From a virus, in IMG/VR virus record IMGVR_UViG_3300045988_154248: a stretch of DNA of 64,000 nucleotides, one strand, 5' to 3'. Both the position numbers and the translations under genes were made by a program. This document shows, in pieces, positions 11,320-50,754 of the stretch. The number at the start of each line of letters is the position of its first letter. Position 1 is the stretch's first letter. The notes under the pieces were generated by a model. That model had not been told where the DNA came from and did no database searches. It saw only the letters and a program-made list of their open reading frames with translations.

Positions 11320-12687
11320 ATGGCAAGACAAAAATATACATATGAACAAGTTTACAATGAATTTGACAAAAGAGGTTATGATTTAGTATCAGAAGAATAC
11401 CATAACGTTTCTGAACATCTGGAATATATCTGCAGAAAACATAAAGACAAAGGTATCCAGAAGATAACATTTTCAAAACTTCATTCAGTGAATAGAGGTT
11501 GTTATTATTGTGGTAGAGAACGAACTGAAAATGCGCATGTGAAAGAATTAGATCCTGAATATGACAAACAATTGTGTGAATCGAAAAATTTTACATATAT
11601 TGGATCGAGAAAAGAAAATCATATTTTTGTTATTGATTTTATTTGTAATAATCATAAAGATCTTGGGATTCAGTCTATGCGTCGCAATAATATGAAAAGG
11701 CAAATTAAAGGATGTCAGTATTGTTCAGGGAAAAATTTACCAGAATGGTATATTATGAAAAAGAAAGATGAAGTAAATCCAAATATTATATTAATTGATC
11801 CATATAAAAACATGACTACAAGAATGAAATGTCTTTGCAAGAAACATAATTTTTTGCATAATAAAACCATGCAGGAAATTTTAGGTGGAAAAGGTTGCTA
11901 TTATTGTGGTCTTGAAAAACTAAGTAAACAAATGTTTTTGTCAGATGATCAAGTCAATGAAAATATTCATAAGAAAAATCCACATGTTGATGTTATAAAA
12001 TATAATGGCGCAGATATTATTTCTGAATGGTACTGTAATAAGCACCAAAAATCATTCAGTAAGTGCTATGTTACTTTGCTTTATTGTGATAGTGGATGCG
12101 ATGAATGTTATAAAGAATTAATTAGAGATAGATATGGTTTGGGTCAGTTAGAGTTTAAGAAAAAAATAAAAGAAATTCATCCAACATTACAAGTTATAGG
12201 CAAATATATAAATAATACCACTCCAGTAGATTTATATTGTCAAAAACATGATTGTTATTTTTCAACAGATCCATCTTCTGCATACAAAAGATTATCTTGT
12301 TGTCCTAAATCTAGAGTCACTTATAAAGAAGAATATGTATGTAGTTTGTTAGAAAAATGGGGTTATTCTATTACTAGACAAAAGAAATTTGATGACTGTA
12401 AGGATAAAAACGTTCTTCCGTTTGATTGTTATTTAAATGATTTTAATGTATTGGTGGAATATGATGGAGAAGGGCATTACAAACCTGTAATGTTTGGAGA
12501 AGAATCCTATGAAGAAGCCGTAGAAAAATTTCATTATACGCAAAAACATGATCAAATGAAGAATGAATATTGTGAAGTAAATAATATTCCTCTTATTAGA
12601 ATTCCTTATTATGAGTTCGATGATGTAGAATATTATCTATATGATAATTTATGTAAACTTGGTGTTATAGAAGAAAATTTTCAATAA
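11320..12687 (+). CDS. intron-encoded endonuclease candidate (zinc-ribbon repeats plus Vsr/DUF559-like PD-(D/E)xK domain)
   Basis: Four to five repeats of the pattern C.KH......(G)C..C (CRKHKDKG...GCYYCG; CNNHKDLG...GCQYCSG; CKKHNF...GCYYCG; CNKHQKS...GCDEC; CQKHDC). C-terminal FDCYLNDFNVLVEYDGEGHY...NIPLIRIPY resembles Vsr-like nucleases. Confidence 0.55.
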   Translation: MARQKYTYEQVYNEFDKRGYDLVSEEYHNVSEHLEYICRKHKDKGIQKITFSKLHSVNRGCYYCGRERTENAHVKELDPEYDKQLCESKNFTYIGSRKENHIFVIDFICNNHKDLGIQSMRRNNMKRQIKGCQYCSGKNLPEWYIMKKKDEVNPNIILIDPYKNMTTRMKCLCKKHNFLHNKTMQEILGGKGCYYCGLEKLSKQMFLSDDQVNENIHKKNPHVDVIKYNGADIISEWYCNKHQKSFSKCYVTLLYCDSGCDECYKELIRDRYGLGQLEFKKKIKEIHPTLQVIGKYINNTTPVDLYCQKHDCYFSTDPSSAYKRLSCCPKSRVTYKEEYVCSLLEKWGYSITRQKKFDDCKDKNVLPFDCYLNDFNVLVEYDGEGHYKPVMFGEESYEEAVEKFHYTQKHDQMKNEYCEVNNIPLIRIPYYEFDDVEYYLYDNLCKLGVIEENFQ

Positions 12688-32447: not shown

Positions 32448-32933
32448 ATGGCAAGTGATAAAATGTTAGGTAGTTTTGATCAAAAATCTGCACCAGAAGA
32501 TAATGATCTTTTGGTAGAATACGATGCTGCTGCATCGAAAGTTAAGAATGTGAAGTTCGGAGGTGTGTGGAACTGGATAGTTAAGAAATTGACATCCGCC
32601 GTAATTAATGAGTTACAAACATCAAGTAAGAATGTAGTGGGGGCTATTAATGAATTAAATAGTAAGAAAGCGATTTGCACCACTGGTTGGGAAAACGGTA
32701 ATGCAAAATCTATTTTTGAAATATTTTCGCCAACTTCTCCAAATGGTATTTATAGTTATTATAATATTAAAGATATTCCATTTTATCATTCTCCTACAGA
32801 TGCCTATGTAACAATAATAAAAGGACATGAGTTAATTATTGCTTTTAATGAACAGAGTATTTTTATAACAGGAAGTTCAAGAAATACATGGACAAAGGAA
32901 TGGCATTCTATCAAGCTTGGTATCCTATCTTAA
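32448..32933 (+). CDS. tail fibre / receptor-binding protein: constant N-terminus (to 32666) fused to the currently expressed variable cassette V1
   Basis: AAGGAGG SD then ATG. Constant part ...VVGAINELNSK ends exactly in the crossover motif AAATAGTAAG (32657-32666). V1 (32667-32933) ends ...RNTWTKEWHSIKLGILS. Confidence 0.75.
   Translation: MASDKMLGSFDQKSAPEDNDLLVEYDAAASKVKNVKFGGVWNWIVKKLTSAVINELQTSSKNVVGAINELNSKKAICTTGWENGNAKSIFEIFSPTSPNGIYSYYNIKDIPFYHSPTDAYVTIIKGHELIIAFNEQSIFITGSSRNTWTKEWHSIKLGILS
32657..32666 (+). repeat. crossover site 1 (end of the constant region)
   Basis: gaaTTAAATAGTAAGaaa, read as L-N-S-K in the fibre frame. Confidence 0.7.
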
Positions 32934-32941
32934 ATAGTAAG
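32932..32941 (+). repeat. crossover site 2 (direct orientation, head of cassette V2)
   Basis: tatCTTAAATAGTAAGaca. It supplies the TAA stop of V1 and, in the +1 frame, N-S-K of V2. Confidence 0.7.
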
Positions 32942-33664
32942 ACATTATTACATAATGCAGGTGGTCATAACTCTATCTTCAGAGGTAAGAACTTAGGTAC
33001 ATCTTACACATCTGCGATGTCTAAGGCTATTCAGGCGGGTACATTTGATGACCTGTATGTAGGTGATTACCTTACAATCAACGGTACTGTATATCGAATC
33101 GCTGGATTCAATCTTGGAAAACAGATTGGAGGCAACGCATCTATGGGTAACTGCATGTGCCTCGTTCCTGACTCTGCTCTGTATAGCGCACAGATGCACA
33201 ATACGGATAGTGGTCAGTATACAGAAGGTTCTGCTGCAAATACAACAACCGGTGCATATGCAAATTCTGATATGAGAACCACCAACCTTGCACAGGCAAC
33301 TCAGAAGATTGTGAACGACTTCGGTTCTACTCATGTAATGTCTTACAGAGATATCCTGCCGAACGCAACCGCTAACGGACAGGCTTCTGGATGGGCTTGG
33401 TATGACTGTAAAGTTGAACTGATGTCTGAGGTTATGGTGTACGGAACAACTGTATGGGCTAATAGCGGATATGAAGTTGGATGTATCAACTCTCAGCTCC
33501 CACTGTTCGCTCTCGCTCCTGAATATATTCACCGTCGCTTCGTCTATTGGCTCCGTGGTGTTGGGAGTGCGACTTCCTTCGCTTCTGTGAGCAACGCCGG
33601 TTATGCGACCAACACCAACGCTTCTTTTTCTTATGGTGTTCGTCCGTTTTTCTTCGTTAATTAA
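32932..33664 (+). CDS. silent fibre C-terminal cassette V2 (244 aa, lectin-like)
   Basis: The in-frame N-S-K entry (LNSKTLLHNAGG...) has no SD; the Met at 32888 lies inside V1. The C-terminus ...YWLRGVGSATSFASVSNAGYATNTNASFSYGVRPFFFVN resembles the WLRS...GVRP signature of DUF6273-type domains, from memory. Confidence 0.6.
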
Positions 33665-33803
33665 GATTTTTACGTGCATAGAAACGGGAATAATAGCTAT
33701 TGACTGCGGATTTAATTGGTTTATATTTTTCAAGTATTTGATGAGAGAATATGGGAATGTGGTAATAGAAATTGCCAAAATTTCCCAAGGAGGTAGGTTA
33801 ATA

Positions 33804-34802
33804 TTGACAAAATTAGAAAATATTCTCGAGCAAATACTTGAAAAATTACAGGATAGCTTAACGCATGAACAGCTTTCGGAATTAGAAAGCACTATGGTTA
33901 TTGCATTCCACGGAATCGAGGTACAAGAAGAACACACTCAGTTAGTAACATCAGAGCGTACATGGGAGAAGATTCTTCGGATGTATTGTGCCGCAAAGCG
34001 TGTTGAAAATTGCTCCGAAAGAACTATTAAAGGTTACAGTCGATGCATTATTCAGTTTTTCACGCAGATCAACAAGAAAATAAATAACATAACTACGAAT
34101 GATATTAGATATTATTTGGCATTTTTTCAAGAAACGCATCATACTTCTATTGTATATCTTGATAACATACGTAGGTATCTTAATTCATTTTTTACATGGG
34201 CTGCGGATGAAGGATATATACAATCAAATCCTATGCGAAAACTCAAGAAAATGAGAGTACCTACTAAACTTAAAAAAACATTTTCAGCAGCAGAGATGGA
34301 AGAACTTCGTTGCAGTGCAAACTCTCAGAGAGATATTGCAATTATGGAATTTTTATATTGTACTGCTACTCGTATTGGAGAGGCAGTTAGCGTTAATCGC
34401 TCGGATATTGATTGGCAAAGAAAAGAATTAATTGTTTATGGAGAAAAGGGCAAGAAAGAACGTACTGTTTATTTGACAGATCGCTGCATTTATCATCTTA
34501 AAAAATATCTTGATGAAAGAAAAGATACAAATGAAGCTTTATTTGTATCCTCAAAATCTCCACATAAGCGACTTGGAGTTCAGGCAATTCAGTCTATGTT
34601 GGCAGCGTTAGGTAAAAAGACAAATATTCACGTACATGCTCATAAATTTCGAAGGACGTTACTTACGGATGCAGGAAAACGTGGTATGCCATTACAAGAG
34701 ATTCAGGTCTATGCAGGACACGCCAAGCCAGATACAACGATGCAATATGTAATGGTTCAACAAGAACGTGTTAAATCGAATTTTATGAAAAATATTGCAT
34801 AA
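33804..34802 (+). CDS. tyrosine recombinase (XerC/D-Rci-like), candidate shufflon invertase
   Basis: CAAGGAGGT SD then TTG 33804. Core-binding domain (ERTIKGYSRCIIQFF...YLNSFFTWAADEGYIQSNP). Catalytic residues: ATRIGE (Arg), HKFRRT (HxxR), GHAKPDTTMQY (His...Tyr). Confidence 0.8.
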   Translation: MTKLENILEQILEKLQDSLTHEQLSELESTMVIAFHGIEVQEEHTQLVTSERTWEKILRMYCAAKRVENCSERTIKGYSRCIIQFFTQINKKINNITTNDIRYYLAFFQETHHTSIVYLDNIRRYLNSFFTWAADEGYIQSNPMRKLKKMRVPTKLKKTFSAAEMEELRCSANSQRDIAIMEFLYCTATRIGEAVSVNRSDIDWQRKELIVYGEKGKKERTVYLTDRCIYHLKKYLDERKDTNEALFVSSKSPHKRLGVQAIQSMLAALGKKTNIHVHAHKFRRTLLTDAGKRGMPLQEIQVYAGHAKPDTTMQYVMVQQERVKSNFMKNIA

Positions 34803-34956
34803 TTTTTATAAATAGTCTAATAAAAATACCCTTATTTTTTGATCGCCCATTGGACGGTCTATTTATCGTGTATGTATATATTGATATTTTGCAATTTTGT
34901 AGGTTGCATGTTTTTATTCTTGTATTTATATTAAATCCGCAGTCTATAGAATTATT

Positions 34957-35266
34957 TTAACCAAATAATAATCCATTCACTTTGTAAAAGGACTCCAATT
35001 TGGAGTTTCCGTTAAAAGTAATTTTACCCAAATCTGTATTAATAGCAATACTTGACGTATCGGTATTTGACGCAGTGAAAGAAAGTAGTTTCATAGACCA
35101 TTTTGTTCCATAATTGATAACAATCGAAAAATACACACCACTTCCAATATTACCGGAAATCAATAATAAACCGATAGCGGTGTCCGATATATTATATTTG
35201 ATCGTTGCTGTTTTGTCATTTATTGTCGTATTAACGTCTATTGGTTTGATTCTTGTCTTACTATTT
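34957..35266 (-). CDS. silent fibre C-terminal cassette A
   Basis: Minus-strand reading from the site: AAT AGT AAG ACA AGA... gives NSKTRIKPIDVNTTINDKTATIKYNISDTAIGLLLISGNIGSG...NGLLFG*, open in the N-S-K frame. No SD or start. Confidence 0.6.
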
Positions 35267-35524
35267 TATTGAGCTGTAAAATATTTCCATTCAGTCCAAC
35301 TGTCAGTATTTCTTTTTCTTCTGATGGCAATCTTATCATGTCCAAAAGAAAATGCTAATTGAGCGGTGTAATTACCGGTACCTAAATTCTGTTGGATAAC
35401 AAAACATGCGTTTGACCCAAGTCCACTTGGTAATCCTATTGGATTAATTTTTGTATCTAATATGGGGCATTTCGGCGGATTGTTTAGATCAGTGATATTG
35501 TTCACATATATTGCCTTACTATTT
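35266..35524 (-). CDS. silent fibre C-terminal cassette B
   Basis: NSKAIYVNNITDLNNPPKCPILD...NTDSWTEWKYFTAQ*, in frame with the site. The stop abuts site A. Confidence 0.6.
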
Positions 35525-35834
35525 AATTAACACTGCAGCAGAAAATCTATATAAAGTATTTTGTGTCGAACTTCCAATTGTTATTTGACCATCCAGCTCA
35601 ATTGAACCAAACATACAATACGGATCAGTTGGCATACTTCCTACTTGAAATATGATCTGTGTTACATTGATGGCATTAATATCATTTATCTTAGCTAAAA
35701 CATACTGGATGCCTGTATTTTGTGCAGTCACATAACCTTCTACTATTAATACTTTTCCGTATGAAACAGCAGATATATGCCCTTGGTTTGATCCATACAA
35801 AATGTCATAACTTTTAATTTCCGTTTTACTATTT
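35519..35834 (-). CDS. silent fibre C-terminal cassette C
   Basis: NSKTEIKSYDILYGSNQGHISAV...AAVLIK*. The stop is the TAG of the AAA-TAG-TAA reading of site B. Confidence 0.6.
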
Positions 35835-36104
35835 TATCTATACGTATATACATAACAACAGAATGTAAAGTTAATGCTAGTATTCATAATGAGTTTATTG
35901 CCATTCAACGTTACAGAATTTATCCTTGAATTTTCTTTTATTGAATAAATATGTCCAGCCGATGCATCATAAAATGTTGAAAATAAATATAAAGCACATC
36001 CATCATATGGATGAGAAAAAGATAGTAATCCACATGAAAGAGGAACTAATTCTATTTCTTTCACTCCGTTTTCGAAAGTCGTTCCGATAACAGTTTTACT
36101 ATTT
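35834..36104 (-). CDS. silent fibre C-terminal cassette D
   Basis: NSKTVIGTTFENGVKEIELVPLSCG...CYVYTYR*, in frame with the site. Confidence 0.6.
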
Positions 36105-36422
36105 TATTCTTCTTTCACGATTGCATTTTTTATGTTTTCATAATAGATAATGATAACAGCATTTGCATACTGTGGAAAATTTGAAAACTTTACATTTTGT
36201 ATAGAATCATTATCGTTACACTTTATTGTGACATCACCTGTTTTTAATGTATTATTTATTTTCCCAATAGTACCTGTTAAAAATGTTGAACCTCCGAATA
36301 ACGCGAATGGAGCATATGATATGTCGTTATTTCCTTCTTTATTTATAGAAATAGTTACCGACTTTATATTGGCTCCAGAAGTTCTATATATCAATAAATT
36401 ATTAAAGACTTGATTACTATTT
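36104..36422 (-). CDS. silent fibre C-terminal cassette E
   Basis: NSNQVFNNLLIYRTSGANIKSVT...NAIVKEE*. The site variant is AAATAGTAAT. Confidence 0.6.
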
Positions 36423-36679
36423 AATGCCAATTGCCCCACGTACCATCACTAAAATCATATATTCTTATGCTAACATTCCATACAATAGAATATCTCACGG
36501 CATATTGTATTTTAATTCCGTCTTGCATAGATCCAATGCAAAATATAAAATACATATTAGCGTCTGGTTTGTTTAAAGCAGAAGAAAATGCAATAGCAGA
36601 TTCTCCGATAGGTAAATCATTACAATCTTTATATTTTCCTTCGCCATAAATTTGTTGTAAACACAATCTCTTACTATTT
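36421..36679 (-). CDS. silent fibre C-terminal cassette F
   Basis: NSKRLCLQQIYGEGKYKDCNDLP...YDFSDGTWGNWH*, in frame with the site. Confidence 0.6.
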
Positions 36680-36975
36680 AACTTATAGTCACAAGATCAA
36701 GGCAGATTAAAAATGCTGCGCTCCATGGACCAAGTGTCACTTTTAATGTTGCCAAAGAAGCATCAAGTACGGGTGGTGCTGCAGATCCAGTTCCTTTTGA
36801 TATTTCTGCCACTCCCGATATCCTTCCTGTTATGTATGCAGAGGTATTGCGGTTGTTATCAATTAGTAAAAACGAAGTCATATGACTGTTTACACCACCC
36901 CACTTTACGCTTACTGTTTTGGCAGAGTCATTACTATATATAATATAACTATTGGCATTGAACCGCTTACTATTT
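36678..36975 (-). CDS. silent fibre C-terminal cassette G
   Basis: NSKRFNANSYIIYSNDSAKTVSVKWGGVNSHMTSFLLIDNN...LVTIS*, checked codon by codon with no stop. Confidence 0.6.
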
Positions 36976-37006
36976 AATTAAAGTGAACGAAAATCTGGAA
37001 AATTCA

Positions 37007-37282
37007 TTATATTTTCTTCCAAGTACACCAATTGTTTATGTCTGTAATCATGGATCGATAGAAAATATTCTCATGGTTTCCAGGTAGGATAATTTGTGTT
37101 ACTCTACCAATAGATTCTGCAAAAATGAAAACAAAACAATTAGTACAATGTTGTTCTGTTGGCTCGTTCTTTACTCGTAGATTACCTGATAAATAATATA
37201 CGTTCGAAGATGTTAAATTGTTAATCAATATCATGCAACGCAATTGCATTTTTCAAAATCTTTTGAAAACATCTTACTATTT
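37007..37282 (-). pseudogene. fibre C-terminal cassette H, frameshifted relative to its crossover site
   Basis: The N-S-K frame reads NSKMFSKDFEKCNCVA* and stops. The 80-codon ORF (MQLRCMILINN...NNWCTWKKI*) is in another frame, and one extra A in the A5 run (plus-strand T-run 37249-37253) would join them. Confidence 0.55.
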
Positions 37283-37286
37283 TTAT

Positions 37287-37590
37287 TTATTGCATTGCAA
37301 AAAAGAATATCTTTGTTATTGTTTCATCATTAGTAATATGAGATGTAAAGTTCCACCCATTTCCATCGAGTGAAAAAATAATACCGGATATCTTAATTGA
37401 TGATTGATCATAAACAATTTTTTGCACTATAGCAGAATAGCCTTTAAGGTGATTTTTCCAACTTCCGCAGATGTTAAAGATCCCGTTGTTTTGCCATCTT
37501 GTCTTAGATATAATCAAATTAATAAGTGATTCAATATCATTGCTTTCCTGTTGTGGAATATTTTTTGTTTTTGCTTGGAGATTACTATTT
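37287..37590 (-). CDS. silent fibre C-terminal cassette I
   Basis: NSNLQAKTKNIPQQESNDIESL...ITKIFFFAMQ*, in frame with the site (variant AAATAGTAAT). Confidence 0.6.
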
Positions 37591-37741
37591 AACATCATAT
37601 ATGCCAATTTTTTGCGTTTCTTTATTAAATATAACCTGTATATTTCCTGCCTTTTCGGTATAAAAAACAAAACCAAATTGATTATCATTCCAAGACTGTA
37701 TAATGATTTTTTTTATATTAAAGAATGCCGTCTTACTATTT
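37585..37741 (-). CDS. silent fibre C-terminal cassette J (short, 51 aa)
   Basis: NSKTAFFNIKKIIIQSWNDNQFGFVFYTEKAGNIQVIFNKETQKIGIYDVK*. The stop is the TAG inside site I. Confidence 0.5.
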
Positions 37742-37859
37742 AATCCACCAGATGAAACTCTGCTTTCATCCTATTTTTGTTCCTCAATTTTCCTTGAAAA
37801 CACTGGGTTTTTTTGAAACCCGTGAAAGATAATATTGACCATTTTCAATCACTAAGGAG

Positions 37860-42396: not shown

Positions 42397-42452
42397 TTTG
42401 ATGGGAGGTATCTATATTGGCATCTCCCATTTTTTATGTTGGAGGTGATTTT

Positions 42453-44210
42453 GTGACAGAAAAAGAATTCGTTGAAAAAATAGGTAAGCTTGCCGCCGAA
42501 GATATGAAGACAAGTGGAATTTTAGCATCAGTTACTACTGCCCAGGCTTGCTTGGAATCTGGATACGGAACAACAGAATTGGCAAAGAATGCAAATAATT
42601 TATTCGGAATGAAAACAAGTCTCTCTGGTAACACATGGACTTCTGCTTGGGATGGAAAGAGTAAATATACGAAGAAAACAAATGAGCAAACCAAAGATGG
42701 GAAAGTTTATGTTGTAACTGCTGATTTTCGAAAGTATGCAGATATCCTGACTAGTATCAAAGACCATTCCTATTATCTCAATGGAGCGATGAATGGAAAA
42801 GTAAAAAGATATGCGGGTTTATCTGGTTGCAAAGACTACAAAACAGCAACGCAGATCATAAAAAATGGTAGATATGCAACAGATGTTAAATATGTAGATA
42901 AAATTTGTAGTTTGATCGAACGATGGGATTTAACTCGTTTTGATAAACTCGGAAGGGAGAATTCGAATATGAATATTATTGACGTTACAAATGCAAGCAG
43001 ACCTTATGTCCCACAATGGGGAAATCAAAAACAATATATTGTAGTTCATTATCTTGGAGTAGCAGGGCAAAATAATAAAATTAATTCAGATGGATGTGGC
43101 GCGCATTACTATATTTATTGGGATGGTACGATTTATAAAGCAGCAGACCATAATGCTATCCTTTGGCAAGTAGGCACTGCAGGATACTATACTCAAAAAC
43201 ATCCATATGCAAGGAATAGTAACTGTATCGGAATCGAGATGTGTCCTAAGTGTGATGGATCTGGAAAATATGCAGAAGATCCAACATGGTATTTTACAGA
43301 AGCAACGCAAAATGCTTGCGTACAATTAGTAAAATATTTGATGGGACAACTTGGTGTAGGTGCGGATCATGTACTTAGACATTATGATGTTGTTAACAAA
43401 TATTGTCCTGCTCCATATGTTACTAACAATAAATATAAAACTTCTTGGACATGGAGCGAATTTAAAGCAAAGCTAGGTTCTACTTCTACTCCTACTGTTG
43501 CACCGTCCACACCAGCACAAACAAAAACATATAAAGTTGGTATGTATAAGGTAAATTGTGATCTTCATATCAGATCGGATGCAACTGTTAATTCAAAAGT
43601 TGTCAATACTATTCGAGATCGTGGCGAGTATACTATAACAGAGATTAAGAATAATTGTTGGGGTAAACTAAAATCTGGAGCTGGCTGGATCAATGTTTCG
43701 GATGAATATTGTACGTATGTTGGTGTAGTAGCCACTGCAAATAAACCAGTGCCTAAACCAACCGTAAAGCCAGCTACACCTGTATACAAAGTAGGAAAAT
43801 ATAAAGTTAATTGTGATGCTTTAACAATTAGAAGCGATGCATCCAGCAAGGCAAGCGCAACTGGAAGCATTCGTGACAAAGGAACTTATAATATCACTGA
43901 AATCAAAAATACATACTGGGGTAAGCTAAAATCAGGTGCAGGTTGGATTTGCATTGACAAAGATTTTTGTACCTATGTCGGTGTTTTGGATAAGCATAGC
44001 ACTGTTGTAAATAAAGAATTTCAAATTGCAGTTAAGGAAAATGGCATCAGAGTTCGTGCTTCTGCTGGTCTAAGCGCTAGAATTGCTATTGGTTCTTGCC
44101 CTATTGGAACATATACTATCACAGAAACAAAAACTGCTGATGGATATACATGGGGTAAATTGAAATCTGGTGCAGGATGGATAGCAATTGAATGCTGTGT
44201 TAGATTATAA
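42453..44210 (+). CDS. bifunctional endolysin: glucosaminidase + N-acetylmuramoyl-L-alanine amidase + three SH3 repeats
   Basis: GGAGGTGAT SD then GTG 42453. AQACLESGYGTTELAKNANNLFGMK (glucosaminidase). IVVHYLGVAG...GIEMC...LRHYDVVNKYCPAPY (amidase_2). Three repeats of YKV..(Y)KVNCD.L.IRSDA...WGKLKSGAGWI. Confidence 0.85.
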   Translation: MTEKEFVEKIGKLAAEDMKTSGILASVTTAQACLESGYGTTELAKNANNLFGMKTSLSGNTWTSAWDGKSKYTKKTNEQTKDGKVYVVTADFRKYADILTSIKDHSYYLNGAMNGKVKRYAGLSGCKDYKTATQIIKNGRYATDVKYVDKICSLIERWDLTRFDKLGRENSNMNIIDVTNASRPYVPQWGNQKQYIVVHYLGVAGQNNKINSDGCGAHYYIYWDGTIYKAADHNAILWQVGTAGYYTQKHPYARNSNCIGIEMCPKCDGSGKYAEDPTWYFTEATQNACVQLVKYLMGQLGVGADHVLRHYDVVNKYCPAPYVTNNKYKTSWTWSEFKAKLGSTSTPTVAPSTPAQTKTYKVGMYKVNCDLHIRSDATVNSKVVNTIRDRGEYTITEIKNNCWGKLKSGAGWINVSDEYCTYVGVVATANKPVPKPTVKPATPVYKVGKYKVNCDALTIRSDASSKASATGSIRDKGTYNITEIKNTYWGKLKSGAGWICIDKDFCTYVGVLDKHSTVVNKEFQIAVKENGIRVRASAGLSARIAIGSCPIGTYTITETKTADGYTWGKLKSGAGWIAIECCVRL

Positions 44211-44354
44211 TAAATACATGCGTGAAATAAGAAAAGCCACCCTCATCAGGCAGCCAGAAAAGAAATTTTTCTTTTTTCACCATCATATGAAACAACCGTT
44301 TCATCAGTGCAAAAATAGTATATCATATAAGATAAAATGATGCAATAATTTTAT

Positions 44355-44392
44355 GGGGAATATCAATTAATTTTGGTATTCCCCATTTTTTT
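44355..44392 (+). terminator. terminator hairpin (possibly bidirectional)
   Basis: GGGGAATA ... TATTCCCC stem followed by ATTTTTTT. It abuts the tniQ stop codon. Confidence 0.55.
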
Positions 44393-45875
44393 ACGCTTTT
44401 TTATTATTTTTCTGTATTTTTAGATACGTTTCAGGATATCTGTATTGTAGTATATTCATGGCTTTTATCATATTTTTTTCTATTACGTGTACCATACCCT
44501 TTAATTCGCTATATGAAATATAATCGCTGTCAATTTGATCGACAATATATTTTATTTTATCGACCCAATAATCCTCTATTGGTTTTTCTTTTGTTTTAAT
44601 ATACTTATAGCATTGTGGCATATAATAAAAATCATTTCTTCTGATGTCTTGACAAATTTGTTGCATGAAAGCATTAAATCCTCCTACAGTTAATCTTCTA
44701 ACTTTGTCAGAATTCTTAAAATATAAGTCAATATAATATTCAATTTTAGGATAATACTTTTTATCTAATTCAGAATACCTCTTTCCTTTAGGCGGTATAT
44801 TCCTACTGCTACTATGTGCATAATTTTGGCTTATTATTTTTTGTTTTTCAACTTCATATTGACCGTTAATTATTTTACTTACATTACAAGGTAAAATATG
44901 ATATTGTTTTGCAAGCTTGTTTATGCCGTTATCTTTTGTATACTCTGATCGAATTCTTTCGACTAATTCCGAATCAATTTGTTTCGCCGTTTTGCATACA
45001 AAAATATCAGATATTTGTATATCTAAAAATAATAATATATGAATTGTTCTAAGTGGATTCGCTTTATTTGAAAATATATCTTGCATTTTCTTAATCTGAG
45101 AATTCTTTTCTATACTATTCTCTAACAAGTATTGTTCAAAATCATTAATAAATGCTGACTTATGTTGTAGCCACGAAAGTTGATTTATATACCGTTTTTG
45201 AATTAATTTTTTATAGAATACATCAAACATCGTAATACCGTTTTTAAGACTCTGTTTTCTTACTACTAATTGATATAGGTATTTTGCGGTATTTATTTCA
45301 CCGATGGTTCCCATATTATACGAATAATCATCATCAATACAATTTTCAGCTGCATGAAAATTAATTATTCTTGAATTATTAACATTAATTGACGAATCTT
45401 TAAGTTTACATCCGTGAATTACACAAACATTAATTTCTGGAATTTGATGAAAAGCATTCCAATATGTTTCGTGATATTGCTCTCTATTTTCTTTTGCACA
45501 TAATGGACAATATTTTAGAAATATTTTTTGATGTTTATGTTTTGGTCTTAATGGAAGATATTCTGTAAAACTCTTGTCATTTGATATGAACTTTCTCAAC
45601 GCATCTTCTTTGTTTGATTTGTTTAAAAATAAAGACCAATAGAAAAACATAGTGTGATTATAATATAAATCATTAACTATATAATTTTTCGACATAAAGG
45701 AATACAATGTGTCACTCGGTTCATTCACATAAAATATTTCGATGTATTCATGCGGTTGTTTAAACACGATTTCTTTAAAAGATTGATTATTCTGTACATT
45801 TATATCTTGTTTCAATCTTGAATACACGCTATAGAATAATTCATGTTCATATATTTTTGGAAAGTAATTTATCAT
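44391..45875 (-). CDS. tniQ: TniQ/TnsD-family target selector
   Basis: N-terminal FPKIYEHELFYSVYSRL (TniQ signature). Zn motif CPLCAKEN...CVIHGC. C-terminal HTH-like GINKLAKQYHILPCNVSKII. Start overlaps the tnsC stop. Confidence 0.75.
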   Translation of the reverse strand: MINYFPKIYEHELFYSVYSRLKQDINVQNNQSFKEIVFKQPHEYIEIFYVNEPSDTLYSFMSKNYIVNDLYYNHTMFFYWSLFLNKSNKEDALRKFISNDKSFTEYLPLRPKHKHQKIFLKYCPLCAKENREQYHETYWNAFHQIPEINVCVIHGCKLKDSSINVNNSRIINFHAAENCIDDDYSYNMGTIGEINTAKYLYQLVVRKQSLKNGITMFDVFYKKLIQKRYINQLSWLQHKSAFINDFEQYLLENSIEKNSQIKKMQDIFSNKANPLRTIHILLFLDIQISDIFVCKTAKQIDSELVERIRSEYTKDNGINKLAKQYHILPCNVSKIINGQYEVEKQKIISQNYAHSSSRNIPPKGKRYSELDKKYYPKIEYYIDLYFKNSDKVRRLTVGGFNAFMQQICQDIRRNDFYYMPQCYKYIKTKEKPIEDYWVDKIKYIVDQIDSDYISYSELKGMVHVIEKNMIKAMNILQYRYPETYLKIQKNNKKA

Positions 45876-47077
45876 AATTCTACCTCTTCTACAGTAAAAG
45901 TATTTTTAATAAGAGTTAAAAGATTACAATTATTAGACTGCGAATGATCATACAAATTCGCAATACTAATTCCGTCTGGATGTTTAATTATTATATTTTC
46001 AACGGGTTTCTTCATGGACGATTTAATCTTTTTTTGTATTCTTTCTGGATGCATGGACGCCGTTTCATTATATGATGCATTGAAAATATTAATGTTTAAT
46101 TCTTCTGTGCCACTCATAATAGCTAGTTCTTGAGCCTTGTAGAATAGCGATACAACCGTTGACGTTACTCCATTAGAATGTGAATATAACCAATTTATAA
46201 GCTTCTCAGATGGTTCTGTATACTGCTGTACATATTGAAAATGCAACAACTTATTACAGAAATGTATAAAAGCATCATCGTAATCCGTTTGTAGATATCG
46301 CAATCCAATTGTCCTTCTCTCTAAATGAGGAGCGCTTTCGAACCAATGCAAACATTCCGGTGTTCCCACCATACAGATACTAATTCCGCTGCTATTGATG
46401 ATTTGTGTCAACGATCCAATAAGCTTTTCGCCATTTTTATTGTTGACAACATTCTGAATTTCGTCAACAATTAATACGCCAACATGATTTAAACATATTT
46501 GACTAACAAAACCAATCAGTCTATCTATTGTATATCGTTGTGCTATTTGCAAATAATCTCCGTCTAGTGTAGCATCAAGAATACGAACAATTTCTAATAA
46601 CAGACTTTTTACAGATGAGTCAAATGGGCATTGTACGAGTATAAATGGAGCAATTCTTTGGTACGGATCAGTTGTTTCAATAAATTTGTTTCCAGAAATC
46701 AATGATATTGCTCTGGTAATAGCACTACTCTTCCCTATGCCAGAAACTCCAATGATTGTAAACGAATCAGCACCACCTATAATACCATTATACGTTTGTA
46801 TGGTGTTTGTTGTATTTTCGATTCTTTGCTGTTTTACCATCATATCATTTTCTTTTTTCTTAATCGACCTGAGTAATGCCATATACAATTTATTATATAC
46901 ATCAACAGATAATTGTGATGGAATATAAATATCATATAATTCTGATAACGCCAGAAGACGAGTTGGCATTGTTTCATTGGCAATGTTTATATTATAGTTT
47001 GGTAATATCTGCAATTGATTTATCAGCTTATCGCCACATAAAAAATCAGGCAATTGTGAAAGTAATTTACCGTTCAT
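45872..47077 (-). CDS. tnsC: TnsC/TniB-like AAA+ ATPase
   Basis: Walker A GVSGIGKSS, Walker B VLIVDEIQ. ATGA overlap with the tnsB stop. Confidence 0.8.
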   Translation of the reverse strand: MNGKLLSQLPDFLCGDKLINQLQILPNYNINIANETMPTRLLALSELYDIYIPSQLSVDVYNKLYMALLRSIKKKENDMMVKQQRIENTTNTIQTYNGIIGGADSFTIIGVSGIGKSSAITRAISLISGNKFIETTDPYQRIAPFILVQCPFDSSVKSLLLEIVRILDATLDGDYLQIAQRYTIDRLIGFVSQICLNHVGVLIVDEIQNVVNNKNGEKLIGSLTQIINSSGISICMVGTPECLHWFESAPHLERRTIGLRYLQTDYDDAFIHFCNKLLHFQYVQQYTEPSEKLINWLYSHSNGVTSTVVSLFYKAQELAIMSGTEELNINIFNASYNETASMHPERIQKKIKSSMKKPVENIIIKHPDGISIANLYDHSQSNNCNLLTLIKNTFTVEEVEL

Positions 47078-48807
47078 CTTTTAACTCCTCCCCTAGCAAT
47101 CAATTCAATCTCATTCATCAGATCAATCTTCGCCTGTCGTGCATTGATTTGTTCAGAACGTAGTGTTGTTTTGCTCTGTTCTTTGATCTGTTCCACTTCA
47201 TCCAATTTTCTATTCTTATATCTGCTTTCAACCAATTCAAAAGGAATAAACTCGCCCTTCTCTACTGTCCATACTACAGATACATCATCTGGATCGTAAG
47301 CAACCTTAACATCTCCACCTTGCAGGAATCTTTCGGCGCAATCATCCCGTTTATACCGCATCCCATTTACCACTAGACCACGCCTAGTGAATGTCCCAAT
47401 GGTACGTGGGAGCAGATATAGGATTATTTTCGCGGTGTCATGCGGGAATGGAATTAAATTTGCGCCTGGTTGCTGTCTTCCCCATTCCCATATACTGGCT
47501 GCATATGGCTTTACTCCGTCTTCGATCATGGATTGTGTGTAAGGGAATCTTTCTATGAGCCGTTGGCTGTTGTAGTAGATAATACAACGCAGGATGATCT
47601 TTTCGAAATCAAACATTGTCAAACAGGCATCCAATCTGTAATCTCTTGCACCTCGTTCTTGGAAGTCTGGATCAATCACGCCTTTACCCTTAAGAAGAGG
47701 TTTATACATGGATTGAATGATGTCAAAGAATTTCTCTACTGCTCCTTTTAACTCTGGCCTGTAAGGTGGAAGATTTACCATAGTCACACCTGTTTCTGTA
47801 ATCTGTGCAAAGGATTCTGAAGTATACTCGCGTCCCATATCTGTTACAAAGATAGCTGGCAACTCTTGCACGTTCCACTGGGATTTTTCTAGTGAGATGC
47901 CGAACTTTCTACACCATTCTGTTTTGTCTGTAAGGATATTTTGGAGCAGATGACATAAACTCTTTGTATCGTTATTCCATGAGAGAACATAGCCATAACA
48001 CATACTGCTGTAAGCATCAATACAAGTAGTTAGGATCGGGCGACCTTTTAAGGTTCCTGTCTCGTCTATGAGGTAGATGTCACATACAGTTGAATCGAAC
48101 ATACCCGTCCCTATGTTGGTTGCAAACTCACGGATACCATCTCCTAGCAAGGGACGATTGTTCCGCTGATAATTTGACAGTCCATCTCTGGAAATATAAT
48201 AAGTTTGGAGCTTCTTGGTTTTCCGGTAAAAGTATCGAAACTGATAAAAGGATGGATGATCGGATAGTAACTGTCCCATGCTGTCACAATACTTTTCTTT
48301 CAGCATCATCTCATATGCTGTAACAAGACTGTTTTGTCTGCGTGTATAGAAGAACTTATTCAATGCCCATCTCATGTTTTTCTCATCTTTAGTCAGTACC
48401 TTTTCTTTCGTATGAACTTTTGGTGCAAGTACAGTGACGGTCTGAAAGATTAGATACTGATACAGATAGCGGCGGATGGTCTGCTTACTAATGTTATGCT
48501 CCTCTGAGATGGAAGAGATGATGTTTGCAGTTGCTGTACTGTCTCCTAAGTGGTACAGGATTGGTGCAATCAGAGTGTATCTCTCATGCGCAATGCGCAT
48601 TTGATCAGATGTAAGCTCCTGTTCGGCTGGTGGAGTGATGTTAAGCGCGTCATATAAATGCTTCTCTGGCAATGGGGTATATTGCGTTCTGAGCGTCCAG
48701 AATGGCATTTTCGGATGGAGACAGTCAATTACAAGGGTCTGGTTATCTGATGTCTTTAAAATTCTGTAGAACGTGTTATTGATATAGGCTATTTCAGCTT
48801 TCTGCAT
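47074..48807 (-). CDS. tnsB: TnsB-like DDE (Mu/rve-type) transposase
   Basis: HTH N-terminus. Catalytic core CDIYLIDE...IFVTDMGREY...PYRPELKGAVEKFF. Confidence 0.85.
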   Translation of the reverse strand: MQKAEIAYINNTFYRILKTSDNQTLVIDCLHPKMPFWTLRTQYTPLPEKHLYDALNITPPAEQELTSDQMRIAHERYTLIAPILYHLGDSTATANIISSISEEHNISKQTIRRYLYQYLIFQTVTVLAPKVHTKEKVLTKDEKNMRWALNKFFYTRRQNSLVTAYEMMLKEKYCDSMGQLLSDHPSFYQFRYFYRKTKKLQTYYISRDGLSNYQRNNRPLLGDGIREFATNIGTGMFDSTVCDIYLIDETGTLKGRPILTTCIDAYSSMCYGYVLSWNNDTKSLCHLLQNILTDKTEWCRKFGISLEKSQWNVQELPAIFVTDMGREYTSESFAQITETGVTMVNLPPYRPELKGAVEKFFDIIQSMYKPLLKGKGVIDPDFQERGARDYRLDACLTMFDFEKIILRCIIYYNSQRLIERFPYTQSMIEDGVKPYAASIWEWGRQQPGANLIPFPHDTAKIILYLLPRTIGTFTRRGLVVNGMRYKRDDCAERFLQGGDVKVAYDPDDVSVVWTVEKGEFIPFELVESRYKNRKLDEVEQIKEQSKTTLRSEQINARQAKIDLMNEIELIARGGVKR

Positions 48808-49138
48808 CTGTTACAATCCCCCAATCTTGAACGTGATGGGCAAGCCAGTAGGAATGTGATATGTCCAGAAGTTTAATTGTAAGTGGCTTGGGCTTGGTCA
48901 GATGACTTCGTTCTACGCACTCTCGGACATATTGTGTACCATCCTGTCGGGTGATAAGGAAGTCTGTGGTATAGTCTTCATCTTCGAGTGGCGCATTGCA
49001 TTGGAAAGATTGAACAGATGGATCGGTTTCCAGTTTGTCTGCATAAACAGATTGGATGGTATTGTAGCATCGGCAGATCGTGTCACATTTAGAGAGAGAC
49101 TTTTTCTCACAGCGTCCTTTGTAGTTTTTCTTGTACAT
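48794..49138 (-). CDS. tnsA: short TnsA-like endonuclease (N-terminal catalytic domain only)
   Basis: 114 aa. SVQSFQCNA...YTTDFLITRQDGTQYVRECVERSHL fits the TnsA N-domain layout (E...D...E/QxK region), though the expected Lys is not obvious. Overlaps the tnsB start by 14 nt. Confidence 0.55.
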   Translation of the reverse strand: MYKKNYKGRCEKKSLSKCDTICRCYNTIQSVYADKLETDPSVQSFQCNAPLEDEDYTTDFLITRQDGTQYVRECVERSHLTKPKPLTIKLLDISHSYWLAHHVQDWGIVTDAES

Positions 49139-49160
49139 AGTGTACCTCCTTTGATTTTAT

Positions 49161-49340
49161 GTGTCGAAAAAGTTACCCAAAAATGAATTATGTGTGTTTC
49201 GAAAAGTACCCAAAAATGCTTGTTTTTGGGCGTGTGTAAGAATAAGTACCCAAATCCTGTTGTTTTTGGTAAAATCTGGGAAAGCACGAATCCAGTGTTT
49301 ATGCGGGTTCCCAGATTTTTTAATATTTATCATTACACAT
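49161..49340 (-). repeat. Tn7-like right-end: 3-4 TnsB-binding-site-like repeats and a TGTGT tip
   Basis: Direct repeats TGTGT..CGAAAA(A)GT(T)ACCCAAAAATG at 49161-86 and 49193-219. A related copy TGTGTAAGAATAAGTACCCAAATCC lies at 49233-58 and a degenerate GGGTTCCCAGATTTTTT at ~49303-20. The sequence ends ...CATTACACA at 49340, which reads TGTGTAATG inward. Confidence 0.5.
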
Positions 49341-49644
49341 CCCCAAAAATAGAGTAAAAAATATACTATGTTTCAAGGCAACCTCCTTGAGCCTAAAAAG
49401 GGCAAAACTGTTGGTTCTGCCGCTGATATGACTATAGAATATTTAATAGATATTTTGACATATATTTTCGTGTAAACTTTTCCGACCGGAAGGTTTTGTC
49501 TATGTTTGGAAAGGGCTGATGAGAAATGGATATGGGATAGATACAAGCAGATGAAATCACAGTTTCATCGGAAAATTTCAAAATTGCCAATCCCAAAAAC
49601 CCAGTATTTAAGCCTTTTTATCTGTGCATAATTTGTTATTAACG

Positions 49645-49700
49645 TAAAAAAAGACCTCATAACCACATTTCTATGGTTACAAGGTCTTCATTTTGTTATT
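49645..49700. terminator. bidirectional terminator
   Basis: AAGACCTCATAACCA ... TGGTTACAAGGTCTT stem flanked by an A-run upstream and a T-rich run downstream. Confidence 0.7.
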
Positions 49701-49889
49701 TTTCAATTACTCCGGCTTGTGTCCGGGCTGATGATCGGGGTAAGGGACAGTTGGAAGCTGGTCGGTGATCTGTTAGCGAACGGCTAGAGGATCAGTGACT
49801 TTGCCCTTTTGAGGATCAACTGGATTGCCCTGGGACATAGAGAAAACCTTGTATGGGGATATTATAACCTTGGATTCTCTCCATGTCAA

Positions 49890-50555
49890 CTATCCTACCA
49901 CTCTAACATCGGCATAATACATACCGGAATTAAGAGCTTCTGAATGGCTGTCAACATAAATATCAACGCATCCACTTGGCACTCCACGATCTTCTACAGT
50001 GTAGATCTGACCGTTAATTTCTACTTTAGTTCCAAACGGTAAATCAGCCATGGCAACTGTTCTGCCAGCTACAGGATATGTACCAGATGCCGTTGGACTG
50101 CCAGCCCAGGAACCATTGCAGTTTGCACATCCGCAGTAATGAGTGATTCGATATGCACCAAGACTGTAGCAGGAATAAGAAGTTGTCTCTACGAATTCCG
50201 TCTCAATTGGTTCAGCCTGTTGAATAGGCTCTGAGATAAGCGGGGTATCAGAAAGATATTCATTTGACATATAGAATACATTATCACCAATCTGTACTTT
50301 TGCCCAGTTGCCCTCTGTGATGTCAAGCACCTCTACTGATGCTCCATATGGAAGAGCGCCAATTTTCTGAGACTCAACAGAATCACCTGTTCGATAATTA
50401 AGACCGATGCTAGGTTCAACATATTTAGTCTCTGCATTAGCCAGTGTTGGAGTGAGTAATACGGTTAGTAGAGTTACAGTAGTTGTTAGTTTTTTCTTAA
50501 AATTATTCAATGGTTTAGACCTCCTGACTTTCGTATACTTGGACTTCTTTCGCAA
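49890..50555 (-). CDS. secreted SH3 + 3D-domain cell-wall-binding/hydrolase protein
   Basis: Signal peptide (...LLTPTLANA/ETK). SH3-like GDSVESQKIGALPYGASVEVLDITEGNWAKVQ. 3D-domain-like C-terminus YRITHYCGCANCNG...GRTVAMADLPFGTKVEINGQIYTVEDRG. Confidence 0.7.
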   Translation of the reverse strand: MRKKSKYTKVRRSKPLNNFKKKLTTTVTLLTVLLTPTLANAETKYVEPSIGLNYRTGDSVESQKIGALPYGASVEVLDITEGNWAKVQIGDNVFYMSNEYLSDTPLISEPIQQAEPIETEFVETTSYSCYSLGAYRITHYCGCANCNGSWAGSPTASGTYPVAGRTVAMADLPFGTKVEINGQIYTVEDRGVPSGCVDIYVDSHSEALNSGMYYADVRVVG

Positions 50556-50754
50556 GCTCTGCTGCTAGTTCACCTTCATAGGTAAAATCAATTGGCTGAT
50601 TTAGAGCAAGGCTGAAGATACCCATAATGGATTTTGCATCAACAACATATCTTCCAGATACAAGTGTTGCATCTCCTGGATATTTGCTGACAGTTACGAC
50701 AAACGCTTTTACTTTATCAACGTTGTCAAGAACGATTTGTTTTTGTAGTTTCAT
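50515..50754 (-). CDS. HPr/Crh-like protein lacking the His15 site
   Basis: AAAGGAGAA SD then ATG 50754. VVDAKSIMGIFSL matches the HPr Ser46 region (NLKSIMGVMSL). The position equivalent to GIHARPA reads NVDKVKA. Confidence 0.6.
   Translation of the reverse strand: MKLQKQIVLDNVDKVKAFVVTVSKYPGDATLVSGRYVVDAKSIMGIFSLALNQPIDFTYEGELAAELAKEVQVYESQEV

Follow-up and report, generated by a model that had tools for sequence, protein, structure and literature searches.

A Tn7-like tnsABCQ operon and an adjacent 469-bp unit carrying both transposon ends form the probable lysogeny module of a temperate phage

The DNA analyzed here, referred to as the window, is a 64,000-nucleotide stretch of viral sequence (IMG/VR record IMGVR_UViG_3300045988_154248), and all coordinates are counted from its first letter. 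It is part of a large phage of an anaerobe and encodes tape-measure and tail proteins, a holin-like protein, an endolysin, NrdD/NrdG, an NAD-dependent ligase, a dUTPase and a guanylate kinase. The subject of this study is a Tn7-like operon of four minus-strand genes in this phage, tnsA-tnsB-tnsC-tniQ (tnsABCQ), together with a 469-bp mobile unit that lies upstream of tnsA (Table 1). A preliminary description, made from the sequence by itself, had reported four translationally coupled Tn7-core genes. This assignment was borne out by the overlaps of the open reading frames (ORFs) at their starts and stops (4, 4 and 14 nt), by Pfam matches, by the DDE residues of TnsB and by the fold of TnsA. The TnsB catalytic residues D238, D323 and E358 are invariant in the family and align with D, D and E of Tn7 TnsB (7pik; profile alignment, E = 2.2e-57). 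Walker A (GVSGIGKS) and Walker B (LIVDE) motifs are seen in the TnsC translation, and a CxxC...CxxHxC zinc-finger motif is visible in that of TniQ. Because the TnsB triad is intact and the TnsA fold matches 1F1Z/1T0F, the operon is, by sequence and structural model, a genuine Tn7-family module.

Purifying selection acts on all four genes: dN/dS is 0.15-0.17 for tniQ, 0.08-0.10 for tnsC, 0.04-0.06 for tnsB and 0.04-0.16 for tnsA. The GC content was 0.438 in tnsA and 0.416 in tnsB, compared with 0.327 in tnsC, 0.262 in tniQ and 0.343 in the whole window, so that the lower AT content of tnsB-tnsA noted earlier by eye was real. Cas domains were not found in or around the module and no resolvase gene was present in or beside the operon. 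An Rfam search of 44000-50600 at E<=1 returned nothing except a chance match to osmY, in agreement with the reported absence of Cas genes and a CRISPR array. On the tniQ side, where only ~180 bp separate the gene from the endolysin stop, there were no inverted copies of the repeats and no transposon end, again as first described.

The TnsA-like protein has the fold of a known nuclease and an altered set of catalytic residues. A sequence-only search of the PDB with the TnsA profile gave no real match, and a search by fold was therefore needed. The AlphaFold2 model of the protein (pLDDT 94.9) had 1t0f/1f1z as its top Foldseek matches (E ~ 3e-5, TMq 0.74), which corresponds to the catalytic-domain fold of Tn7 TnsA. 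When the profile was aligned by hhalign to Tn7 TnsA, whose sequence was checked against 1F1Z, Q29, D59, E73 and V75 were placed at Tn7 positions E63, D114, Q130 and K132 (E = 0.0027, probability 11%). Among 35 TnsA-like homologs, Q29, D59, R72, E73 and C74 were invariant, and the four aligned residues Q29, D59, E73 and V75 were invariant or nearly so; across the family, Q stands in for E63 and V or I for K132. The protein also stops where the C-terminal TnsC-binding domain of TnsA would start. Both the missing C-terminal domain and the absence of a lysine at the catalytic position, which the preliminary description had pointed out, are therefore upheld. Although the fold is that of TnsA, the full set of canonical endonuclease features (E63, D114, K132 and a C-terminal domain) is not present, and the alignment and model suggest that the protein is probably a pseudo-nuclease.

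The ends of the system were located in the 469-bp unit, outside the operon. On the minus strand the unit reads 5′-TGTCCCAGGGCAATCC...GGTTGCCTTGAAACA-3′, and its two arms form an inverted repeat in which each arm carries two GGGCAA(A/T) motifs about 27 nt apart. These motifs are putative repeated transposase-binding sites, and the arms have the appearance of Tn7-type inverted termini. Their tips, as defined by the junctions below, are TGTCCCAGGGCAA... and ...CCTTGAAACA. The preliminary description had instead placed a right-end tip at 49340 and had recognized no left end. The sequence TGTGTAATG is present at 49340 but is not a tip: prophage/host junctions, solo copies of the unit and assembly breaks put the termini at 49837 (TGT) and 49369 (ACA), the former 497 bp away from the proposed position, and the end thought to be missing stands back to back with the other. 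The ~26-bp repeats on which the earlier placement was based do exist, as three direct copies of ~33-40 nt at 49159-49269, but they lie outside the mobile unit and are not a transposon end.

Table 1. Coordinates and properties of the tns operon, the 469-bp unit and the flanking elements in the window
Feature	Coordinates	Strand	Description
tniQ	44391..45875	-	494 aa, target selector; Pfam TniQ 5e-11
tnsC	45872..47077	-	401 aa, AAA+ adaptor; Pfam TniB 1.7e-11, AAA_22 1.1e-13; phrog_296 DNA transposition protein
tnsB	47074..48807	-	577 aa, DDE transposase; Pfam rve 1.2e-7, Mu-transpos_C 1.3e-5, HTH_TnsB
tnsA-like	48794..49138	-	114 aa, short; Pfam TnsA-like N-terminal domain 9.2e-5 (weak, below curated cutoff)
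469-bp mobile unit	49369..49837	-	both Tn7-type termini (5′-TGT…ACA-3′) as inverted arms; upstream of tnsA, outside operon
TGT-side arm	49789..49837	-	adjoins host att gene in prophage
ACA-side arm	49369..49421	-	adjoins tnsA; distal copy adjoins host DNA
Intrinsic terminator hairpin	49650..49689	-	strong; 18-bp stem and T-run, inside unit
Palindromic box	49550..49569	-	GATGAAA-n6-TTTCATC, inside unit
Phage-side flank	49838..49889	-	sigma-70 promoter TTGACA-17-TATAAT (49889-49861, perfect consensus) and leader ...ACAAGGTTTTCTCTA, firing into TGT tip
Repeat array	49159..49351	.	TTTTTGGG(T/A)A-type, both orientations; between ACA tip and tnsA, outside mobile unit
Bidirectional terminator	44353..44386	+	between endolysin stop (44210) and tniQ stop (44391); far boundary of tns operon

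Junctions with host DNA were seen on both sides of the unit. Two loci found via the exact TnsA protein (L124 and L128) match the window without a difference (100% identity) from 49837 through tnsA. On the left side of the unit they carried genes for YjeF, PemK, YebC, ClpP, BacA, FtsK, a glutamate-synthase-like protein and the SPOUT/RlmH methyltransferase, in place of the phage SH3/dUTPase/Nrd block, and the TGT tip lay 33 nt after the rlmH stop. We refer to this site as att1. At a second site, att2, the TGT tip lay 33 nt after the pflB stop, within the stem of the pflB terminator. Homology between the window and the locus L040 stopped at 49369; this locus, found before the unit-end scan, is a leader-unit-host junction at att2. 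A look-up of P0290 (RlmH) was uninformative, as it led to a different host strain with another downstream gene.

When metagenomes were scanned with the last 25 nt of the unit, 37 loci were returned and both flanks were visible in 23 contigs. Ten loci had the phage form (leader, unit, TAGTATATT...tnsA), three had host DNA before the unit and the tnsA side after it (L153 at att1; L146 and L174 at att2), and five had the leader before the unit and host DNA after it (L152, L155 and L165 at att1; L151 and L177 at att2). In four further loci a solo unit was flanked by host DNA on both sides (L158 and L168 at att1; L157 and L159 at att2). The outer flanks of the occupied sites were GCGTG on both sides at att1 and CCCGC on both sides at att2. 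Comparison with empty sites, which the preliminary description had proposed, was possible at att1, where nine independent empty sites read ...GATTGCGATGCGTGAAATGCG... and contained GCGTG once. A 5-bp target-site duplication is thus defined by occupied and empty sites at att1 and by occupied sites at att2. Three contigs departed from these classes: L171, a fifth solo-like contig, had the att1 right flank and an unrelated left flank; in L176, GCGTATATTTT replaced TAGTATATTTT to the right of the ACA tip; and L147 diverged 25 nt past the ACA tip. These variants may be footprints of imprecise recombination or further element types.

In the window, in L123 and in no fewer than 10 metagenome contigs, the phage-form sequence runs through the unit without a break and is conserved there. 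The integrated form, unlike an element that has its transposition genes and cargo enclosed by a single left end and a single right end, carries two complete two-ended units, with the ends of each 469 bp apart and the genes outside. Read from host rlmH, the integrated form runs through the first unit, tnsABCQ, the phage, the leader and the second unit into host DNA, which places the whole phage 28-33 nt downstream of rlmH. Insertion was orientation-specific and at a fixed distance from a conserved gene, with the tnsA-proximal side always towards that gene. The statement that the module has no cargo therefore holds for the interval to which it was applied but not for the integrated state, in which the cargo is the whole phage. 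Both units were found on one contig in two cases, 27.4 kb apart on OGZV01000038.1 (L146/L177) and 40.9 kb apart on OOCW01000017.1 (L151/L174). The pair on OGZV01000038.1 was 100% identical over 461 bp, compared with 87-96% for units of different elements. Contig ends were informative as well. Phage SH3 contigs ended 30 nt past the TGT tip in Logan assemblies or 141 nt past it in contigs named k141, and tnsA contigs began about 53-55, 77 or 127-128 nt before the ACA tip. We take these distances to be approximately assembler k-mer lengths, judged partly by usual assembler defaults; break-points at such distances from the tips mark the unit as a repeat with exact boundaries.

The choice of attachment site was associated with part of the operon. 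Elements of the att2 type had 93% nucleotide identity to the window over exactly 47074-49837, that is, from the tnsB stop to the TGT tip. Their TnsA and TnsB were 95-97% identical to those of the window, whereas identity was 46-52% in TnsC and 22% in TniQ, and these elements, with the swapped tnsC-tniQ, insert downstream of pflB and not rlmH. The homology break falls exactly at the tnsB stop and coincides with the GC step. Because of this identity boundary, the locus evidently consists of two modules, one comprising the unit, the repeats, tnsA and tnsB and the other tnsC and tniQ, and the comparison indicates that exchange of tnsC-tniQ changes the attachment site. The attachment site tracked the TniQ type, the behavior of a TniQ/TnsD target selector. 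Between close relatives, dS of the tns genes was 0.24-0.84, against 0.01-0.25 for the endolysin, SH3 and dUTPase genes next to them, a 3-8-fold difference. The higher values fit frequent module exchange and a more recombinogenic history than that of the phage backbone. In L040, tail genes 93-96% identical to those at 17-25 kb of the window adjoin the distal unit, though the two-unit att2 elements span only ~27 and ~41 kb. The latter may be smaller or deleted relatives, or satellites that have modules in common with the large phage.

Related modules were found in phages and in bacterial chromosomes. All close IMG/VR relatives (90-95% nucleotide identity) had the module at the same position, and tnsA-B-C-Q was also present in phage groups in which the Nrd, ligase, guanylate kinase, dUTPase and holin proteins share only 30-60% identity. 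In three divergent groups it stands at the boundary of the lysis and nucleotide-metabolism blocks, in one of them in inverted orientation. That relatives carry these four genes at an unchanged module boundary was the finding that the preliminary description had named as speaking for a resident phage module. In a neighbor-joining tree of TnsB, the phage copies grouped together on deep branches, apart from the bacterial copies, and the TnsB family comprised 4014 metagenomic proteins at E<=1e-10. Among isolates and metagenome-assembled genomes (MAGs) of Clostridia and Negativicutes, the same four-gene module (TnsB 51-57% identical, TnsA of ~115 aa) occurred in Sporomusa, Pelosinus, Parablautia, Ruminiclostridium and Pectinatus, including the complete chromosomes of Sporomusa ovata and S. 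aerivorans.

These chromosomal relatives share the layout of unit, repeats and tnsA with the window. They lie downstream of guaA in 17 loci and downstream of prfA in L180; others follow a gene ending in ...RVPIARLAAAQAAI*, probably ppdK. About 50 bacterial loci carry inverted termini (TGTCGTAGGGCA... and ...TGCCCTACGACA) some 190 bp from each other, the pair starting 5-25 nt after the stop of the host gene (guaA or ppdK-like) and ending ~190 bp before tnsA. No third terminus and no second TTTTGGGAA cluster was found within ~7 kb beyond tniQ in these loci. In L058, an element on a Lachnospiraceae MAG contig, the unit recurs 26 kb downstream with the promoter leader ahead of it, abutting the next element. 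The phage module belongs, with these loci, to a large unrecognized family of integrative elements in gut Firmicutes. Close relatives were absent from INPHARED phages, where the best match was the tniA of Acinetobacter records at 21% identity, and from PLSDB plasmids (at most 29% identity). Two further loci returned by a 19-mer scan (L037 and L041) had no BLAST homology to the window and were set aside as apparent chance matches.

Taken together, these observations very probably identify the phage's transposition-based integration system, with ends at 49369 and 49837. That the tnsABCQ operon and the 469-bp unit make up the lysogeny/integration module of a temperate phage is likely. In the proposed mechanism, TniQ would recognize the 3′ end of the host gene and recruit TnsC, and TnsB would pair both tips of a single unit on the circular phage genome (roughly 100 kb, judged from contigs), nick the 3′ ends and join them to the target. 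The 5′ strands would stay uncut, the short TnsA having no equivalents of E63 and K132; TnsA-defective Tn7 reportedly makes cointegrates, as May and Craig are said to have described in 1996. The strand-transfer (Shapiro) intermediate would then be replicated to give a cointegrate, and this would be the prophage, with a target duplication at each outer edge and, between them, unit, tnsABCQ, phage, leader and unit. The phage would be excised by recombination of one unit with the other, which would leave a solo unit. The unit terminator would replace the host gene's own terminator and insulate the tns operon. Cleavage of both strands by TnsA-TnsB is what makes Tn7 a cut-and-paste element, and CRISPR-associated transposons (CASTs) of type V-K, which have no TnsA, make cointegrates (PMC8188705). 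Because TnsA has Q and V at the E63 and K132 positions, we favor replicative transposition, and on balance cointegrate formation is the route we would choose. The chance that the module represents an unrecognized lysogeny mechanism and class of integrative element, namely an inside-out Tn7-like system, shared by a temperate phage and related islands of Firmicutes, that replicatively co-integrates a whole circular genome at a site reprogrammable by a tnsC-tniQ swap, is in our estimate slightly better than even.

Several observations weigh against this interpretation. The evidence consists of assemblies throughout, and a 469-bp repeat is liable to be mis-joined by assemblers; this risk is lowered by the large number of separate samples and assemblers, by the existence of empty sites and by contigs that stop at the unit instead of joining. 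A complete att1 prophage of the window's own phage was present on no single contig, the two junctions coming from different contigs, and no prophage copy with more than 57% TnsB identity was found among the 80 best of 152 relatives in 185,579 representative genomes. An excision function was not identified. The inactivity of TnsA stands on the one profile alignment and the fold match, and R72 and E73, both invariant, could provide a non-canonical active site. Finally, the two units on OOCW01000017.1 were only 96.5% identical, with differences clustered centrally, where the block in the proximal copy matches another solo allele, and unit 1 of L072 was likewise mosaic. Because unit alleles are mosaic in these two cases, homologous recombination between units clearly occurs, and such recombination could itself be the integration step.

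This last possibility can be developed into a different scheme, in which the Tns proteins move only the 469-bp unit into att and the phage integrates and excises by homologous recombination with a resident solo unit, the unit serving as a portable attP/attB. The end product would be identical to the observed structure, and both the mosaic flanking units (the OOCW pair and the chimeric unit 1 of L072) and the abundance of solo units with perfect 5-bp duplications, which made up 4-5 of the 23 contigs with both flanks visible, fit well with it. Excision scars explain the solo units equally well, however, and the complete identity of the OGZV pair is what would be expected if a single unit had been replicated. 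A simple insertion of the unit would also require 5′-strand cleavage by a TnsA-like protein that has lost two of its three catalytic residues, excising the unit would linearize the phage genome, and RecA-type recombination over 469 bp would be inefficient for a lysogeny decision. We regard this scheme as unlikely. Somewhat less likely still is a composite cut-and-paste reaction, in which TnsA would be active through non-canonical residues and a unit-phage-unit segment would be cut from concatemeric or terminally redundant DNA, one cut falling at the TGT tip of a unit and the other at the ACA tip of the unit that follows, and pasted into att in the manner of the non-replicative integration of infecting Mu DNA. 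Concatemers are a normal product of phage replication, the reaction would give the same final structure with its 5-bp duplication, and the strong purifying selection on tnsA and the invariance of D59, R72 and E73 would be accounted for. The transposase would nevertheless have to skip a correctly oriented tip 469 bp away in favor of one about 100 kb off, and the family-wide replacement of E63 and K132 by Q and by V or I also argues against cleavage of this kind.

The preliminary description had offered three explanations: a minimal Tn7-like transposon inserted downstream of the lysis cassette, an immobilized remnant with one end lost, and transposition machinery domesticated by the phage. The lack of a terminus beyond tniQ in the phage form and the difference in GC content between tnsA/B and the phage would suit the first two. 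Both are contradicted, because identical copies form prophage junctions with 5-bp duplications at two host sites beside empty sites, showing that both termini exist and are used. In addition, the module occupies the same boundary across phage groups with proteins only 30-60% identical, its four genes are all under purifying selection, and the tnsC-tniQ swap explains the GC step; an inserted or immobilized element is thus highly improbable. Domestication came closest of the three. We attach just as little credence to the idea that the tyrosine recombinase at 33603-34802, the only recombinase found in the 64-kb window, integrates the phage and that the tns module is unrelated to lysogeny. This protein matches the phrog_1 integrases (7.8e-50) but is encoded in a tail-fiber region with the layout of a shufflon and many short alternative ORFs. 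The prophage boundaries are the unit tips, 15 kb away, and show duplication of 5 bp and of the unit with no attL/attR core, so that the products of an integrase-mediated attP x attB reaction were not seen.

The replicative system proposed here shares features with several known ones. Tn7 and Tn7-like elements, with attTn7 downstream of glmS, have the same TnsA fold, DDE TnsB, AAA+ TnsC, TniQ and gene order, the same 5′-TGT...ACA-3′ termini and 5-bp duplication, and the same orientation-specific insertion, short and constant in its distance downstream of a conserved housekeeping gene, which the tnsA-proximal end adjoins. In both, the target-selector module can be exchanged (compare Faure et al. 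2023, PMC10293859). The differences are that here the ends are 469 bp apart in one cassette with the tns genes outside, that TnsA is 114 aa long with no C-terminal domain and no E63/K132 equivalents, that the integrated form consists of two direct cassette copies with an entire phage as cargo, and that TnsB has only about 27% identity to its classical Tn7-like counterpart. In TnsA-less type V-K CASTs, too, the donor backbone co-integrates between two transposon copies when 5′-strand cleavage is lacking. In our case, however, no Cas12k, CRISPR array or guide RNA was found (Rfam, cas domains) and a TnsA-fold protein is kept; moreover, cointegrates are seen there as a by-product, whereas integration of the backbone appears to be the purpose here.

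Mu and other transposable phages likewise achieve lysogeny by DDE transposition with a 5-bp duplication, and MuA/MuB are homologs of TnsB/TnsC (Mu-transpos_C; phrog_310, phrog_296). Mu differs in having its ends at the genome termini, in choosing targets nearly at random and in carrying host flanks on its virion DNA. The system described here has its two ends side by side within a phage-form sequence that continues across the unit; duplicated cassettes flank the prophage, and insertion is site-specific, apparently through TniQ, with all junctions at two sites correlated with TniQ type. Tn5053/Tn402 (TniA, TniB, TniQ, TniR, res) are TniQ-dependent, replicative, cointegrate-forming relatives of Tn7, but they have no TnsA and carry a serine resolvase and a res site by which the cointegrate is resolved, whereas the present operon has a TnsA-fold gene and no resolvase beside it. 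Replicon fusion by insertion sequences and transposons, such as the joining of plasmids to chromosomes by gamma-delta or IS26, similarly duplicates a small two-ended element on a circular replicon, with later resolution by recombination; such fusion is incidental and not site-specific, in contrast to what appears to be a regular, TniQ-targeted route to lysogeny.

A 2021 survey stated that Tn7-like transposase homologs are not found in viruses (PMC8649781), and the phage tns module, if correctly interpreted, contradicts that statement. Beyond Mu, phages are mentioned neither by Faure et al. 2023 (PMC10293859) nor in an archaeal survey of 2025. No description of Tn7-like modules in phages was found in the full-text literature searched, and work outside it is possible. 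If the interpretation holds, the module would constitute a third route to lysogeny beside integrases and Mu-type random transposition, one that is site-specific, TniQ-directed and of the Tn7 family, and cointegrates, an unwanted by-product in type V-K CAST engineering, would here be the selected outcome. This very abundant family would be wrongly delimited by boundary finders that look for a single left end and a single right end on either side of the genes. Four small proteins and a 469-bp cassette appear to bring to a defined chromosomal site at least 27-41 kb, as measured on single contigs, and probably a roughly 100-kb phage. That cargo need not lie between the ends is relevant to large-payload genome engineering, and the tnsC-tniQ swap at the tnsB stop is a clean natural example of re-targeting by module exchange.

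In the tnsA sense the order around the unit is promoter (49889-49861), CTA, TGT-side arm, hairpin (49689-49650), ACA-side arm, TAG, TTTTTGGG repeats and tnsA. In L040, L043, L072 and L121, as in other phage groups, the distal unit is likewise headed by the promoter and ACAAGGT/CTA leader; both, together with the terminator, are kept in other phage groups and some bacterial elements. The position of the terminator is retained in L009, L012 and bacterial units, and it would be expected to halt transcription that enters from the host att gene or starts at the leader promoter. A transcript of ~205 nt is predicted (49645-49889, minus strand), running from the leader promoter across the TGT-side arm to the terminator ~200 nt downstream; regulatory RNA, insulation and distal-end control are possible roles. 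In the palindromic box the loop varies among close relatives and the stem is compensatory in the L009/L012 groups (ATAAAAT...ATTTTAT; TGAAAT...ATTTCA), and the box could be a protein-binding site or a resolution site.

The repeat array includes, besides the three direct repeats, a partial inverted copy at 49324-49349. Its exact 13-mer core GTACCCAAAAATG, or a copy with one mismatch, occurs within the 64 kb only at the direct repeats, and one TTTTTGGG copy lies inside the unit at 49591-49600. Divergent relatives, phage and bacterial, have conserved motifs of the TTTTTGGG class upstream of tnsA, the only place where these cluster. The array is co-inherited with the unit, tnsA and tnsB and is missing from solo units; because solo units lack the repeats, these are not part of the mobile unit. 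The array is probably an operator or enhancer of the tnsA-tnsB module and, speculatively, loosely resembles the operator/enhancer region of Mu.

Three other views of the unit were considered and rejected. A structured non-coding RNA gene, with the promoter, the terminator and a long closing helix, was suggested by its layout, but Rfam was empty, the topology of the GGGCAA motifs changes between phage groups and the junction data make the arms transposon termini. An invertible segment or a physical genome end was suggested by breaks at 49421-49496 in L003, L007 and L004, but in many assemblies the breaks lie at about k-mer lengths (53-55, 77, 127-128 or 141 nt) from the unit tips, the pattern that a collapsed repeat would give. 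A simple transposon comprising the whole phage with abutting ends has the wrong geometry, as the arm sequences lie inside the 469-bp segment.

Elsewhere in the phage, the endolysin gene is split by an IS605-family TnpB (OrfB_IS605/Cas12f1-like_TNB, 372 aa) in the close relatives L125, L126, L127 and L130, at the equivalent of ~42417-44210 of the window, which leaves separate Glucosaminidase and C-terminal ORFs. An HNH/homing-endonuclease-like gene at 11320-12687 (phrog_559, 3e-51) lies between the tape-measure gene and the downstream structural genes. In the shufflon-like tail-fiber region (32651-37747), at least seven copies of a 16-17-nt site, (T)CTTACTATTTAA, are arranged in both orientations around the recombinase, with about 10 short minus-strand ORFs downstream of the large tail genes, and inversions at these sites probably diversify the host range.

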